IMG/VR virus record: IMGVR_UViG_3300044675_003951
Coordinates: 1 to 55,701 of that record
From: a virus
Lineage: Duplodnaviria > Caudoviricetes
Strand: one strand, 5' to 3'
Length of the DNA stretch: 55,701 bases
The notes beneath the pieces are model-generated. The model did no database searches. It had not been told where the DNA came from and saw only the letters and a list, made by a program, of their open reading frames with translations. This document shows positions 23,132-26,920 of this stretch, piece after piece. The number at the start of each line of letters is the position of its first letter. Position 1 is the first letter of the stretch. The position numbers were made by a program, and so were the translations under genes.

Positions 23132-23988
23132 TGTATAGTAACTTGTTGCACATGTTGTCTTTGTGCAATCTTTTGTAGTAAATCTTTTTTGTCGGCACTG
23201 TACTCTAGATCAGCTACAGGAAAACGCAAAGGCTGCGCTTTTATATTATACACATTTTTTATGCCGTGTGCAAGAAAAAAGTCTTGATGCTGACGAATAT
23301 AATTGTCAACGTTGGCGTATTTCTTAAGCAAGCTACGATTGCCAAATTGAACATTAAAATCAGCACTGTAATGATCAAATGGTTTGAATGCTTCGTCGGC
23401 AATGTACTTATCATTGTCATGTGCTAGATCTTCTGCAGTTTTGCCAATTTCGCAGTAGTTCAAATACACTGTACCAAATGTGATTTCTGAGGTGCCGTAT
23501 TCTTGTTGCAATTCGGTGTTTAATCTTTCAGTTTTGGGCATGCCAAACCAAGTACATACCAATCGAGGATCGCTCTGGGCCAATGCTGTTTCACATCTGT
23601 GAACTGCTATGTTTAATTCTGCCAGTGCCTGCTGTACTGACAAAGGTGCGGTGTTCCAGTATTGGGTATTTTGTTGGTCCAGTAGTCCGTGATATTTTTC
23701 AAATATATTGTGAAGATAGTTCAAACAATCCTGTGTGTATTCAAATGGCCTTGTGATGATTGGCGAATGTGCATTGATTGTTGAGATGCATTGTTGGATT
23801 ATATCAACTGCTCGAGATTTTTCTTGCTCCGGGGTGTTGAATCCGTAAAATCTTTTGGGATGATCTAATGGATAATTTCCACGGGCCTGCATTCTGTTAA
23901 CCCACAACTTGGCCACGGGAGTGTTGCGAATTTGAAATTGAAGAGTCAGCGGGTCAGACTGCCCTAGCACAATAACAAGATGTTTCAT
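23128..23988 (-). CDS. Hypothetical protein
   Basis: Start refined to ATG 23988 (MKHLVIV), 6 nt after a -10 box; no family recognised. Confidence 0.6.
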   Translation of the reverse strand: MKHLVIVLGQSDPLTLQFQIRNTPVAKLWVNRMQARGNYPLDHPKRFYGFNTPEQEKSRAVDIIQQCISTINAHSPIITRPFEYTQDCLNYLHNIFEKYHGLLDQQNTQYWNTAPLSVQQALAELNIAVHRCETALAQSDPRLVCTWFGMPKTERLNTELQQEYGTSEITFGTVYLNYCEIGKTAEDLAHDNDKYIADEAFKPFDHYSADFNVQFGNRSLLKKYANVDNYIRQHQDFFLAHGIKNVYNIKAQPLRFPVADLEYSADKKDLLQKIAQRQHVQQVTIQ

Positions 23989-23994
23989 TGTGCT

Positions 23995-24023
23995 AGTGTA
24001 CACTTGTTGTTGCAAGAAGTCAA
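23995..24023 (-). promoter_or_regulatory. sigma70-type promoter, probably leaderless; -35 box overlaps the terminator U-tract
   Basis: TTGACT-17 nt-TACACT-6 nt-ATG. Confidence 0.7.
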
Positions 24024-24052
24024 AAAAACAGGTACCGTTTTAAGGGTACCTG
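24022..24052 (-). terminator. Rho-independent terminator of the early cassette region
   Basis: Minus strand CAGGTACC-8 nt loop-GGTACCTG-TTTTTTT. Confidence 0.88.
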
Positions 24053-24059
24053 CCAAAAG

Positions 24060-24087
24060 CCCGGGCCGGAGCCAACCAGCGCCCAGG
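24060..24087 (-). ncRNA. Candidate regulatory RNA hairpin with an anti-RBS loop
   Basis: Stem CCUGGGC/GCCCGGG; loop holds UGGUUGGCUCC, the exact complement of GGAGCCAACCA at the ATPase RBS (25230-25220). Confidence 0.45.
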
Positions 24088-24088
24088 A

Positions 24089-24196
24089 TTATTTGTTGAT
24101 TTCTTTTACAATAAAGCCTGCTTCGGCCTGTTCGTCTGCTTCGTACTGGGTGTCCACAGCATACAAGAACAAGTCACCATCCCAAATTTCAAACAT
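24089..24196 (-). CDS. Small acidic 35-aa protein not in the ORF track
   Basis: MFEIWDGDLFLYAVDTQYEADEQAEAGFIVKEINK; starts 1 nt after the ATPase stop and ends right before the hairpins. Confidence 0.55.
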   Translation of the reverse strand: MFEIWDGDLFLYAVDTQYEADEQAEAGFIVKEINK

Positions 24197-24197
24197 A

Positions 24198-25220
24198 TTA
24201 TGCTACTTTCATGCAAGTTGTTTCTGCCAGACGCTTCCAGTTCAGCATGCTCATCTTGCGCAGGTCTGCAATTTTGATAGCCATACGCAGACTCATTTCA
24301 CGCAGACGATTCTGGTTAGCATCCATGAACGCAATGATCTCGTCTTGCACTTCGGATTCAAAGTCGTAGTCTGCAAACAACACGCCGTCCTTGGCAATTT
24401 GCTTGATACGCAGAATCTTGTCATGCATGGTGTCCAGAGTCAGGTCCAAGTAGTGGCATCGGCTTTGCAATGCATCCAAGTGGTCCCGCAGTTTCTGGCT
24501 CTTCATCTTGTCAAACTTCAAATTGGTAATGAAGATGGCACTGCCTTTGAATTCAAAACTGTCCGGGATGCCTTCGCGGCGCAGGCTCGAGCTTTCTGAC
24601 AACCAGCTAATTTTACGCTTCTTGCCTGAGTCCAAGGCACCCTTCAGCAAGTTAAGGCTCACATCGTCCAGCAAGATGCTGTCGCAGTCATCAAACACAA
24701 CTACACAATTTTCGTCCGAATACTTGTACAAGGTCTGATACAGGCCAATAGGGGTAGCAGCACCTTTCACAACTTCTGCACGAAGTCGCTTGCCTGCTAG
24801 CTTGTCAAACATGGTGGCTTTTTCGATCTCTTGCTCCACGCCAAAGCTCTTGCCCACACCTGGAGGACCTGATACAATCATGGCACGAATGTCGCCTGTG
24901 ACTGCTGCCTTGGTCATTTCGTGCAGGATGTCAAAACGCTCACGAATGCGCTCAATGGCTTGTTCTTCTGTTTCTGCTGGCGCAGCCACTGCCTTGGCAG
25001 CGTTGGTGGTTGTGTCTGTCATGCCGTTAGTATACTCAATATCAGAAATGTTGTCAACACGGATACGGATCGTATCAGGGCAGTTAGGGAAATTGCCGTC
25101 GTTTTTCACAGTCACAAAGTTGCCTTTGGCACCTGTTTGAAACCCTGACACAAGACTAAACACTTGGTCAGCTACGGGACGTTTACGATACTCTCCGCGA
25201 ACGATACGAATTGCACTCAT
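24198..25220 (-). CDS. AAA+-type P-loop ATPase, early gene
   Basis: GPPGVGKS Walker A, VVVFDDCD Walker B, FITN sensor 1, ALQSR Arg finger; AAGGAG SD. Confidence 0.85.
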   Translation of the reverse strand: MSAIRIVRGEYRKRPVADQVFSLVSGFQTGAKGNFVTVKNDGNFPNCPDTIRIRVDNISDIEYTNGMTDTTTNAAKAVAAPAETEEQAIERIRERFDILHEMTKAAVTGDIRAMIVSGPPGVGKSFGVEQEIEKATMFDKLAGKRLRAEVVKGAATPIGLYQTLYKYSDENCVVVFDDCDSILLDDVSLNLLKGALDSGKKRKISWLSESSSLRREGIPDSFEFKGSAIFITNLKFDKMKSQKLRDHLDALQSRCHYLDLTLDTMHDKILRIKQIAKDGVLFADYDFESEVQDEIIAFMDANQNRLREMSLRMAIKIADLRKMSMLNWKRLAETTCMKVA

Positions 25221-25242
25221 GGTTGGCTCCTTTGGTGTGCGT

Positions 25243-25284
25243 TGTTTAAGTATTAATTATAACAGAATAGGAATTAATGGTCAA
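25243..25284 (-). promoter_or_regulatory. Early promoter cassette 1
   Basis: TTGACC(25284-25279)-17 nt-TATAAT(25261-25256), extended -10 TG, leader TAATACTTAAACAA. Confidence 0.9.
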
Positions 25285-25505
25285 GCAAACAATTCGCCGT
25301 ACATTTCTTCGTACACTGCATCAAAGTCCTCACGAATCCACTCAACGGCGTATCCGCGCTGGGCATAATCATCTGCCATGACCTGCAGGTAGCGCTGGGC
25401 CTGTAAGGCACTCATATTCTGATTGGCCATCAGGCTTAGGTTGCTACAATGTGCAAAATTGTTGCTGTCTCTGTGGGCACTAACTTGCACAAATTGCTTG
25501 ATCAT
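25281..25505 (-). CDS. Small early hypothetical protein
   Basis: Own promoter, AGGAG SD; TGA stop lies inside the next -35 box. Confidence 0.75.
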   Translation of the reverse strand: MIKQFVQVSAHRDSNNFAHCSNLSLMANQNMSALQAQRYLQVMADDYAQRGYAVEWIREDFDAVYEEMYGELFA

Positions 25506-25520
25506 TTGCTGGCTCCTGTT

Positions 25521-25565
25521 TGCTGTTTAAGTATTAATTATAGCAGAATGGACATTTGGGGTCAA
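25521..25565 (-). promoter_or_regulatory. Early promoter cassette 2
   Basis: TTGACC(25565-25560)-17 nt-TATAAT(25542-25537); upstream GTGTTG/CAACAC stem-loop with A-tract at 25574-25593. Confidence 0.9.
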
Positions 25566-25600
25566 CCGTTTGGGTGTTGTTTTTTTGCAACACTAAAGTA

Positions 25601-25822
25601 CTAGATTTTGGTCAGAACAGTCATTAATTGTGCATGGATTTGATCCATTTCGTCCTGTTCTACATAGAAGTCTGTAGTAGGATCGTAGTACTGGCCTTGT
25701 TTGTTGTCATAATACAACACTCGACCTGAGAAGTTGAACGGACCTTCTAGGCCCTTTCGTGGACCGTATTTGGTACGCATCTGATCCATTTCGAACTTGT
25801 CTGCCAGTACCTTGTAGCCCAT
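25601..25822 (-). CDS. Small early hypothetical protein
   Basis: Own promoter; LEGPF...YYDNKQGQYYDPTTDFYV aromatic repeat. Confidence 0.75.
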   Translation of the reverse strand: MGYKVLADKFEMDQMRTKYGPRKGLEGPFNFSGRVLYYDNKQGQYYDPTTDFYVEQDEMDQIHAQLMTVLTKI

Positions 25823-25836
25823 GTCGCGCCCCTTGT

Positions 25837-25881
25837 TGCTGTTTAAGTGTTAATTATAGCAGAATGGGAATTAATGGTCAA
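25837..25881 (-). promoter_or_regulatory. Early promoter cassette 3
   Basis: TTGACC(25881-25876)-17 nt-TATAAT(25858-25853). Confidence 0.9.
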
Positions 25882-26123
25882 TCCCAGCTTTTTTTCTCGC
25901 CGGTGTGTTCGTTGTAGTTGTAGCCTGCACCGTAGTCTGCAATCTCTTGGCGGGTTAGGTCTGTGTTGCGGAGGCCACTTGTGCCACCAACTCCACCCTT
26001 GTGTGGACCACGGATACGACCGTAGTAGCTGTCTGACATGCCGCGATCAAATGGATCACCGTGCTTGAATGTGTATGAACGTCCGTTGTGCTCTACGGTG
26101 TATTCTTGTGTCACATCAATCAT
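25878..26123 (-). CDS. Small early hypothetical protein
   Basis: Own promoter, AAGGAG SD; HGDPFDRGMSDSYYGR motif; TGA stop inside the next -35 box. Confidence 0.75.
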   Translation of the reverse strand: MIDVTQEYTVEHNGRSYTFKHGDPFDRGMSDSYYGRIRGPHKGGVGGTSGLRNTDLTRQEIADYGAGYNYNEHTGEKKSWD

Positions 26124-26136
26124 TTCTGCTCCTTTT

Positions 26137-26181
26137 TGCTGTCTATGCGTGTATTATAGCAGAATGGGAAATAATGGTCAA
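26137..26181 (-). promoter_or_regulatory. Early promoter cassette 4
   Basis: TTGACC(26181-26176)-17 nt-TATAAT(26158-26153). Confidence 0.9.
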
Positions 26182-26182
26182 C

Positions 26183-26920
26183 CTAACGCCAAAGTTCAGC
26201 AATTGCAGGGTTTGCTACTTGATGCGGATTGGGACTGCCATGAAACACAATCACAGCAGTGTCAGGAGCAATTGTGACCCCTGTGCCTGGTTTGTGATAT
26301 CGTCGATATTTAAAATCGTAGCCGCCATCTAGACATTGCCAACGATAGCTCTGAAAGTACTTGGTGTCAAAAAAGCGCCGCTGACTTAGATCTATGTTTT
26401 TGGTTATGTAGTCTTGGTCTCCCTGGCATCCTTGCCGTGCAACATCTATACCTTGGTCAGAGAACCGTTGCCACAGCCAAGCAAACTCCTGGGTATTGAA
26501 CCACATCACGCTGGAATTGATTATGCTCACGTGCTGTTGAAGATATTTGAAATCTTTTATTCCCCAGAACATTGTGGAATCCAATTGTGTGATCCAGGTC
26601 AGATCATTGACGATAACACAATCCAGATCAAAATACAGCATGTTGCCCTGAAATAGTGCAGGGTTAAACAACTGCATTTTGTACCACCAACTTCGTCTGG
26701 GACCAGCAATGCCTGGCCATTCTGTTAGCACATGCTTGATCATGTGGTCAGGAACTGGCCTATCAGCTTCGGTATACACATGCATACGTATACCACCAGG
26801 CAAGAATCTGGTCAACATACTGTGTAGTTTTTCCACATATTGCCAATCATAACCGGTGCTGTGTATCACACAAGCACAGTCAGTTATGCCGTCAGTGCTG
26901 GTTCTATTCTTTTTAGCCAT
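26183..26920 (-). CDS. Glycosyltransferase, GT-A fold (GT8-like)
   Basis: WWYKMQLF, LYFDLD (DxD), INSSVM, GDQDYI, VFHGSPNP. Confidence 0.85.
   Translation of the reverse strand: MAKKNRTSTDGITDCACVIHSTGYDWQYVEKLHSMLTRFLPGGIRMHVYTEADRPVPDHMIKHVLTEWPGIAGPRRSWWYKMQLFNPALFQGNMLYFDLDCVIVNDLTWITQLDSTMFWGIKDFKYLQQHVSIINSSVMWFNTQEFAWLWQRFSDQGIDVARQGCQGDQDYITKNIDLSQRRFFDTKYFQSYRWQCLDGGYDFKYRRYHKPGTGVTIAPDTAVIVFHGSPNPHQVANPAIAELWR

Follow-up and report, generated by a model that had tools for sequence, protein, structure and literature searches.

Can the 3' end of a phage messenger RNA (mRNA) control the translation of the first gene on the same molecule? This question is raised by a locus in a 55.7-kb fragment of an uncultured virus of the Caudoviricetes (IMG/VR record IMGVR_UViG_3300044675_003951, positions 1 to 55,701; approximately 16% complete). 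The whole of this stretch is called the window below; near-complete relatives of the phage are jumbo phages of 340-349 kb. On the minus strand of the window, a gene for an AAA-type ATPase of 340 amino acids (aa) is followed by an intrinsic terminator, and shortly before this terminator there is a hairpin whose loop is exactly antisense to the ATPase gene's ribosome-binding site (RBS). Comparison of related loci makes a functional pairing between the two sequences well supported. We consider it probable that this 3'-terminal anti-RBS pairs with the Shine-Dalgarno (SD) sequence and start region of its own transcription unit and blocks translation of the ATPase, with folding back of the mRNA as the likeliest way of doing so.

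The 3'-terminal hairpin and its target

Hairpin 1 (24060-24087, minus strand) consists of the arms CCUGGGC (24087-24081) and GCCCGGG (24066-24060), which form seven pairs including one U:G, and of the 14-nucleotide (nt) loop GCTGGTTGGCTCCG (RNA GCUGGUUGGCUCCG) at 24080-24067. Within the loop, the 11-mer UGGUUGGCUCC (24068-24078, minus strand; DNA TGGTTGGCTCC) is the anti-RBS. It is the exact reverse complement, read as 24078-24068, of GGAGCCAACCA at 25230-25220 on the same strand, which comprises the SD sequence, the spacer and the A of the ATPase AUG. A sequence-only reading of the window had proposed this hairpin and the perfect 11-nt match, and every coordinate was confirmed on the minus-strand read. 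Hairpin 1 is separated from the terminator by the U-rich single-stranded spacer CUUUUGG (24053-24059, minus strand). The terminator itself (24022-24052, minus strand) has the sequence CAGGUACC-cuuaaaac-GGUACCUG followed by U7 (DNA CAGGTACC-cttaaaac-GGTACCTG and T7). Together, hairpin 1, spacer and terminator make up a 3' piece of approximately 66 nt. The UUGG within the loop core fits the YUNR U-turn motif of fast-pairing antisense loops, but there is little information in this match. A scan of positions 23800-26400 against Rfam returned only a chance-level small nucleolar RNA model (E 4.6) elsewhere in the region, and for positions 23900-25600 no DNA similarity match was found among deposited phages.

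The target gene (24198-25220, minus strand, ATG at 25220) encodes a protein with a strong match to phrog_1250 (E 1.2e-82) and a weak match to the Pfam AAA family (23.3 bits at a cut-off of 21.2), while searches of NCBIfam and of the PDB sequences gave no matches. It shares 35.6% identity with the T4 protein over residues 91-338 and has an additional N-terminus of approximately 90 aa. Judged by these similarities, the ATPase is a homologue of T4 NrdC.10. Some of the matching records label the gene nrdC.10, others, wrongly, 'thioredoxin'.

Conservation of the complementarity in related phages

Relatives of the locus were collected by four protein-seeded scans of IMG/VR, which yielded 202 loci with ATPases 76-100% identical to that of the window. 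Removal of identical ATPase nucleotide sequences left 145 distinct loci, 143 of them with the start of the gene present, and in 135 of these 143 a downstream terminator was detected. Among the eight loci lacking one, six lie on contigs which end within 0-1382 nt, and the other two (L045 and L145) carry the element, but their T-run is interrupted. As a match we counted at least 8 contiguous Watson-Crick nt between the RBS (positions -16 to +3) and the 50 nt 5' of a terminator.

By this measure the complement of the ATPase RBS is kept before a terminator in 125 of the 135 loci, with lengths of 11 nt (37 loci), 10 nt (34), 9 nt (47) and 8 nt (7). A complement of 9-11 nt to the SD region of the own mRNA is thus present in 118/135 loci, and the complementarity proposed for the window is clearly conserved in homologous loci. 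In 121 of the 125 loci the matching element lies between the last ORF (open reading frame) and the first terminator downstream; in the remaining four it precedes the second terminator. The ATPase stop codon and the terminator are separated by 37-1760 nt (a range based on loci L001-L080, the first 80, of which 72 have a terminator), and different sets of small genes are found in this interval; across the family the two partners are 1.1-3 kb apart, with 1.1 kb in the window. The variable distance and the changing small genes indicate, therefore, that the unit exchanges its cargo but retains the element at its end.

Co-variation of the RBS and the 3' element

The sequence GGAGCCAAC is found at the ATPase RBS in 113 of the 143 distinct relatives, and the standard pair consists of the RBS GGAGCCAACC and the 3' element GGUUGGCUCC. 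Loci whose RBS departs from the standard have a correspondingly changed element. The RBS GGGCUAGUAA goes with the element UUACUAGCCC (5 loci), GGGCUAGAAA with UUUCUAGCCC (3 loci), (CA)GGAGCUAAC with GUUAGCUCC(UG) (2 loci), GGAGCUAA with UUAGCUCC (7 loci), and GGAGUUGGC with GCCAACUCC (1 locus). The pairs of the loci L149 and L069 were confirmed by direct sequence reading. Some classes are related in a simple manner: the GGGCUAGAAA class corresponds to the GGGCUAGUAA class with one double change, the GGAGCUAAC class corresponds to the standard pair with one double change, and in the GGAGUUGGC class the spacer halves have exchanged sides. A bipartite complement (GGGAGU.GCAAUG / CGUUGC...GCUCCC around an internal loop) characterises the GGGAGUAGCAAUG class; its duplex energy is -17.3 kcal/mol, and the own module is the best partner in its row of the matrix described next. 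In RBS variants ending with U (GGAGCCAACU, 19 loci), a G:U pair is kept with the unchanged loop.

When 13 RBSs were combined with 13 modules, the own pair was the best or tied best for the standard, the GGGCUAG, the GGAGCUAA and the GGAGUUGGC classes, and in permutations of ten class representatives the sum for the own pairings was attained in 0 of 100000. A maximum likelihood tree of the 143 ATPases (quick IQ-TREE run; midpoint root for drawing only) requires 15 changes for the 11 RBS classes, with the variant classes nested in different clades of the standard class. Matched replacements of RBS and element have occurred in about ten lineages. The two GGGCUAG classes have very similar RBSs and modules and yet belong to different ATPase clades; therefore, the two ends of the cassette seem to travel, or to be selected, together. 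Co-variation of loop and RBS in related phages was the test set beforehand, and its outcome is clearly positive. Thus, a functional RNA-RNA pairing of the 3' element with the ATPase RBS is well supported by the comparison of sequences.

One further locus is worth mentioning in its own right. L070 has an element (UUUUACUCCUG) with 9 nt of complementarity to the L036 RBS (CAGGAGUAA), while the RBS of L070 itself pairs with this element over only 6 contiguous nt. The better fit to a foreign RBS suggests that modules are shuffled and that 5' and 3' ends can be reassorted by recombination.

Uniqueness of the pair

Only two copies of the 11-mer exist within the window, one on each strand, and looser matches to it are not enriched (10 seen versus 14.9 expected). 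We compared ORF starts with the sequences preceding terminators on the same strand at distances of up to 4 kb, and among the resulting 58 pairs of the window only the 11-nt match exceeds 7 nt; the best other pair, with 7 nt, is formed by a neighbouring early gene and the same loop of hairpin 1. Similarly, in a near-complete relative of 340 kb a match of 11 nt was found in one of 89 own-operon pairs, with 7 nt as the next best, and none of 1520 random combinations of an RBS with a module was above 9 nt. A general strategy of the phage was considered as well and rejected, as no other operon in the window or in the 340-kb relative has such an arrangement.

A search of both strands of five large relatives for GGAGCCAAC finds, in each genome, the ATPase RBS and a single loop, and the remaining copies are nearly all located within coding sequence. 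The exceptions belong to a 349-kb relative (G002) with 19 copies, compared to none for the reversed control. Seventeen of the 19 were inspected: 16 are in coding sequence, where they encode Gly-Ala-Asn, and one is a further RBS-like site (L239). The remaining two copies are accounted for by the RBSs of the ATPase and of the gene immediately 5' of it. The copies, for example those at 91462, 92860, 100419, 108137, 110075 and 112184, are mostly Gly-Ala-Asn codons, and the proteins carrying them look repetitive, structural and fibre-like. The enrichment in G002 is therefore unrelated to ribosome binding, and the idea that GGAGCCAAC is a shared RBS or regulon motif was rejected.

Selection on the hairpin and the loop

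An alignment of 94 distinct standard modules allowed us to compare the constraints on loop and stem. The 10-nt loop core GGUUGGCUCC (DNA GGTTGGCTCC) is invariant in 94/94 modules. All seven pairs of the hairpin 1 stem have changed on both sides, and 97.6% of the cells in the alignment are paired. In the terminator stem, compensatory changes are found in four of the eight pairs, with 100% of the cells paired. These covariation values were attained by none of 500 shuffles and by no slid register. The TTT run of the spacer is also at least 90% conserved. Of 106 modules, 82 have a stem of 7 base pairs (bp) and 69 have a loop of 14 nt.

Hairpin 1 occurs with stems of at least two families. CCYGGGC/GCCCRGG goes with the standard loop. 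The second, (G)ATCGC/GCGAT(C), is common to several non-standard classes (L063, L069, L149, L078, L148 and L191), and in this family the anti-RBS either forms part of the loop or directly precedes, on the 5' side, a variant of this stem that has a short loop.

The inverted arrangement of the two sequences could also have its origin at the DNA level, since it resembles two 10-bp sites for one DNA-binding protein or recombinase, and the 3' copy lies approximately 45 bp 5' of the -35 region of the next promoter. However, the 3' copy is always in or beside a hairpin with a covarying stem, which is a property of a single strand. In some lineages only the bipartite complement with unequal internal loops is kept, as expected for pairing but not for a repeated site. 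Furthermore, the arrangement on the transcribed strand is antisense in every case, and the SD sequence is always covered by the 5' copy. A match due to chance and shared ancestry is at odds with the permutations (0/100000), with the random pairs (0/1520 above 9 nt) and with about ten independent matched switches. We regard both explanations, a DNA-level feature and chance, as very improbable.

Predicted folding

In predicted folds of isolated modules (13 representatives), the anti-RBS is unpaired in every class; seven representatives have it in the loop, and six have it in the flank 5' of the hairpin. In the transcript of the window starting at the promoter directly 5' of the ATPase gene (P4, see below) and ending at the terminator, the RBS 11-mer pairs with the loop 11-mer in both the minimum free energy (MFE) and the centroid structure. 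The same long-range helix is present in the MFE structures of seven out of seven other transcripts, which are 1.1-2.2 kb long and represent five RBS classes, although MFE folds of long RNAs alone are weak evidence.

In all classes the duplex includes the SD sequence, and in most it extends to the AUG or to the final spacer bases; because of this it is expected to compete with binding of the 30S subunit. This expectation bears on another possible role of a real pairing. A tie between the 5' and 3' ends might protect the mRNA from end-dependent ribonucleases, or it might serve to store the mRNA in an inert form until 3' processing activates it. The evidence of co-variation applies equally to such a role, and the positions of the partners, one at most approximately 30 nt away from the predicted 5' terminus and the other at the 3' end, would suit it. 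A 5'-UTR/3'-UTR (untranslated region) interaction reported for Bacillus subtilis hbs (PMC5737220) provides a precedent, and hok (discussed below) another. However, a duplex which includes the SD sequence in every class, and which in the better-pairing classes is at or near the AUG, must compete with the ribosome, and the strong terminator hairpin 3' of the element would hinder exonucleolytic trimming as in hok. Thus, protection or storage of the mRNA as the main role seems improbable to us.

Possible modes of action: folding back in cis or action in trans

How could the pairing work? In our model the anti-RBS is kept single-stranded, be it within hairpin 1's large loop or, as some lineages have it, directly 5' of this hairpin; by pairing over the SD sequence and the AUG it should exclude the 30S subunit. 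The ATPase would be translated while its mRNA is still being synthesised. The 3' end would be transcribed 1.1-3 kb later, whereupon the finished transcript would fold back, 5'-UTR to 3'-UTR, and new initiation would cease. Synthesis of the ATPase would therefore be tied to ongoing early transcription and would be low afterwards. A stable 3' piece of approximately 66 nt could act likewise in trans. Masking of the loop by terminating ribosomes was considered too, and was rejected because the distance between the last stop codon and hairpin 1 (median 11.5 nt, range 0-66) is too variable for a consistent mechanism.

A purely trans-acting alternative holds that the 66-nt 3' end is processed from the operon mRNA and that, as a stable 3'-UTR-derived small RNA (sRNA), it titrates the ATPase RBS and perhaps the GGAGCCAGC RBSs of neighbouring genes, thus providing a delayed negative feedback which closes early expression. 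The architecture of the module fits well, with a single-stranded seed and a U-rich stretch that are both conserved, a hairpin, and a terminator in common with the parent mRNA; in six lineages the seed is the free 5' flank of the hairpin. Moreover, abundant processed 3'-UTR-derived non-coding RNAs are reported for the virulent Pseudomonas phage PAK_P3 (PMC10914365). On the other hand, neither a dedicated promoter nor a conserved processing site is evident in the variable coding DNA upstream of the module, and a pure trans regulator would not need to reside in the transcription unit of the ATPase, where the element is found in 121/125 loci and never elsewhere in the genome.

Possible further targets of such an sRNA are provided by the neighbouring genes. 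In the window, GGAGCCAGC (25508-25516, minus strand), the RBS of a 74-aa early ORF (25505-25281), can form 9 bp with the loop, one of them G:U, as the sequence-only reading had stated; it is a possible secondary target. In loci of the standard class, GGAGCCAGC or GGAGCCAA is common at neighbouring early genes close to a promoter, with 8-9 bp matches to the loop (71 RBS-like sites in 107 loci, among them the site at 25508-25516). In loci of the variant classes, however, the neighbours keep such RBSs and the loop follows the ATPase RBS. Because of this behaviour the ATPase is the selected partner, and the RBSs of the neighbours may be incidental or secondary targets. A shut-off of more than one early gene, as had been proposed, is not borne out, since the changed loop tracks the RBS of the ATPase only.

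An insertion present in some relatives also bears on the choice between the two mechanisms. In L042, L055, L058, L061 and L134 a unit is inserted approximately 11-13 nt past the ATPase stop codon, between the ATPase gene and the anti-RBS module. It comprises the terminator TAACCCTGT-ctagc-ACAGGGTTA, together with a promoter and a gene for a protein of 152 aa (MSYTSVDGWYDH...). It is present in the standard class and in the GGGCUAGUAA class, and the element beyond it still matches the ATPase RBS. At these loci (four, and the truncated L042) the element thus belongs to the next transcription unit, which speaks for an sRNA. The unit is polymorphic within clades, however, and is therefore probably recent and probably a mobile moron.

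Several points weigh against the fold-back model. With a terminator and a promoter before the element, as at the loci just described, a strictly cis-acting mechanism would need read-through. In the MFE structure of the window transcript the long-range helix forms at the expense of hairpin 1, although the stem of the latter is clearly selected. Moreover, a closed loop of 14 nt cannot accommodate 10-11 bp without strain, and either the pairing is partial or the stem opens after nucleation. At L036 there is no recognisable element (4 nt), and at L076 and three other loci with GGAGCCAC the RBS has changed without a matching change of the loop (7-8 nt). The GGAGCAAAA class (3 loci) has only 7 contiguous nt, which are not class-specific by energy, and at two loci with GGAGCUUxAAAA the match of 6-7 nt with an A/U patch is weak and not class-specific. 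The loci are metagenomic contigs, many of them closely related, and several variant classes have one to three members. Finally, we infer the pairing in vivo, the repression, its timing, the expression and the RNA ends from sequence.

Taken together, we favour intramolecular folding back of the mRNA because the element is in the same unit in 121/125 loci, because the pair is unique in the genome, and because the helix in cis is the predicted ground state. Regulation solely by a processed sRNA appears less probable to us. The two mechanisms are not mutually exclusive.

Comparison with known systems

The closest match in logic is icaR of Staphylococcus aureus, where an anti-SD motif in the 3'-UTR is reported to pair with the SD sequence of the own mRNA and to hinder initiation of translation (PMC3868564). 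The authors describe icaR as a 'singular example' (PMC3868564). Common to both cases is a 3'-untranslated anti-SD sequence directed against the own SD region. There is no sequence relationship, and the element analysed here belongs to a phage and not to a bacterium. Its mRNA is polycistronic, with 1.1-3 kb and variable small genes between the partners, and its anti-RBS is in a covarying hairpin loop abutting the terminator. It pairs over 9-11 bp including the spacer and the AUG, while icaR has a UCCCCUG motif inside a long 3'-UTR. The mechanism of icaR includes cleavage of the duplex by RNase III. A duplex of 11 bp is short for this enzyme.

The sequence-only reading had pointed to the hok type of fold-back. 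In the hok/sok system of plasmid R1, the 3' fbi element pairs with the 5'-terminal tac, by which the full-length mRNA is inert until it is activated by 3' trimming; hok encodes a membrane toxin of approximately 50 aa and is accompanied by the antisense RNA Sok. Similar to hok, a 3'-terminal element here is complementary to the 5' region of the full-length mRNA. Membership in the hok/sok family was nevertheless rejected: the regulated ORF encodes a 340-aa AAA ATPase and no small toxin ORF was found, the pairing involves the SD sequence, spacer and AUG and not a 5'-terminal tac, and there is no sign of an antisense gene, as a promoter scan revealed no strong promoter on the opposite strand facing the 5'-UTR of the ATPase. 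In contrast to hok, a strong terminator hairpin is located 3' of the element. Thus, from the earlier interpretation the functional RBS-antisense pairing stands, on the strength of the co-variation, while the element does not belong to the hok family and the shut-off of several early genes is not supported.

Like 3'-UTR-derived sRNAs, the module is built from a conserved seed 5' of the terminator of the parent transcript, a U-rich stretch and a terminator hairpin with a U-tail. It differs from them in its targets, of which just one, the gene at the head of its own transcription unit, is matched consistently. RNA phage MS2 is known for long-distance pairing of an RBS. For anti-SD-like sequences several hundred nt downstream of an RBS, pairing in vivo which lowers translation and stability is reported (PMC12697547). 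In natural genes such sequences are generally selected against, whereas the complement described here is maintained, extends into the gene-specific spacer and co-evolves with it. In a limited literature search for phage UTR-derived small RNAs and RBSs and for UTRs and SD sequences of jumbo phages, no example from a DNA phage surfaced.

Gene neighbourhood

The ATPase gene is preceded by the promoter P4 (25256-25284, minus strand; TTGACC-17-TATAAT with a TG extension, 11/12 matches to the consensus). The predicted 5'-UTR between P4 and the ATPase is approximately 30 nt long, A/C-rich and ends with AAAGGAGCCAACCATG. In the relatives inspected, a promoter is located 36-51 nt 5' of the ATPase ATG. 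Three further near-consensus promoters on the minus strand, P1 (26181-26153), P2 (25881-25853) and P3 (25565-25537), are each associated with a small ORF, and transcripts starting there would run through to the same terminator as that of the ATPase (24052-24022). The region 25537-26181 (minus strand) contains an array of four near-identical cassettes with a spacing of approximately 300 bp, each comprising a sigma-70-type promoter and a leader with the pattern TTGACC..ATTCTGCTATAAT..AAACAGCAA..GGAG and driving an ORF of 73-81 aa. This array looks like a duplicated early-promoter module.

Between the ATPase gene and hairpin 1 there is a 35-aa ORF (MFEIWDGDLF...; 24089-24196, minus strand), whose ATG at 24196 is one base past the ATPase stop codon (TAAtATG) and which ends 1 nt short of hairpin 1. 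It translates cleanly and has no family match. An ORF of 35-42 aa with the pattern M[FY]EIWDGDL[FY]LY..D...YEADE...GF.V recurs just 5' of the module in many relatives, where it often adjoins or overlaps the preceding gene, also with no family match.

On the other side of the module (23986-24023, minus strand), the U-run of the terminator overlaps the -35 region of the next promoter (TTTTTTTGACTT). The -10 region of this promoter is TACACT (24000-23995), and six nt further on is the ATG (23988) of an ORF of 286 aa lacking an SD sequence, the mRNA of which is, from this layout, probably leaderless. The overlap of terminator and -35 region together with the SD-less ORF recurs in L006, L049, L054 and other loci. 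The 286-aa protein gave no match in PHROGs, Pfam or NCBIfam.

A possible counterpart exists in the cultured jumbo Pseudomonas phage PA5oct (L241; MK797984.1, 248735-249933), which carries an NrdC.10-like gene with 51% identity and the RBS GGAGTAGCAT, similar to that of the L012 class. Ten nt past its stop codon is the hairpin AAGTAGCA-agga-TGCTACTT. Seven nt of the RBS (AGTAGCA) are repeated in the 5' arm, and the 3' arm with the adjacent A of the loop (ATGCTACT) is complementary to 8 nt of the RBS; 8-nt matches occur three times in 2.4 kb. No relatives of PA5oct for a study of co-variation were found among viral contigs, and this case is a lead only.

Implications

Very few cases of a bacterial-type mRNA regulated by its own 3' end are known. 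The natural genetics of the present case is unusually clean, with a 10-nt loop invariant in 94 modules, about ten matched replacements and a pair which is unique in 340 kb. It is tempting to speculate, though we would give this picture somewhat less than even chances, that the ATPase mRNA is a self-closing early messenger: it would be translated only during its own synthesis, its last 70 or so nt would then snap back, and a nuclease-resistant 3' stub would silence the remaining copies in trans. If true, this would be the first switch based on pairing of the 5' and 3' ends of an mRNA described in a DNA phage, and approximately ten naturally co-evolved, mutually orthogonal pairs of RBS and anti-RBS would be at hand. 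Such ready-made pairs could serve for reporter work and for synthetic translational control. For the biology of these giant phages, the locus offers a testable model of how one conserved early protein, a member of the T4 NrdC.10 family of unknown function, may be restricted, and it provides a hint that the dose or the timing of this protein matters.

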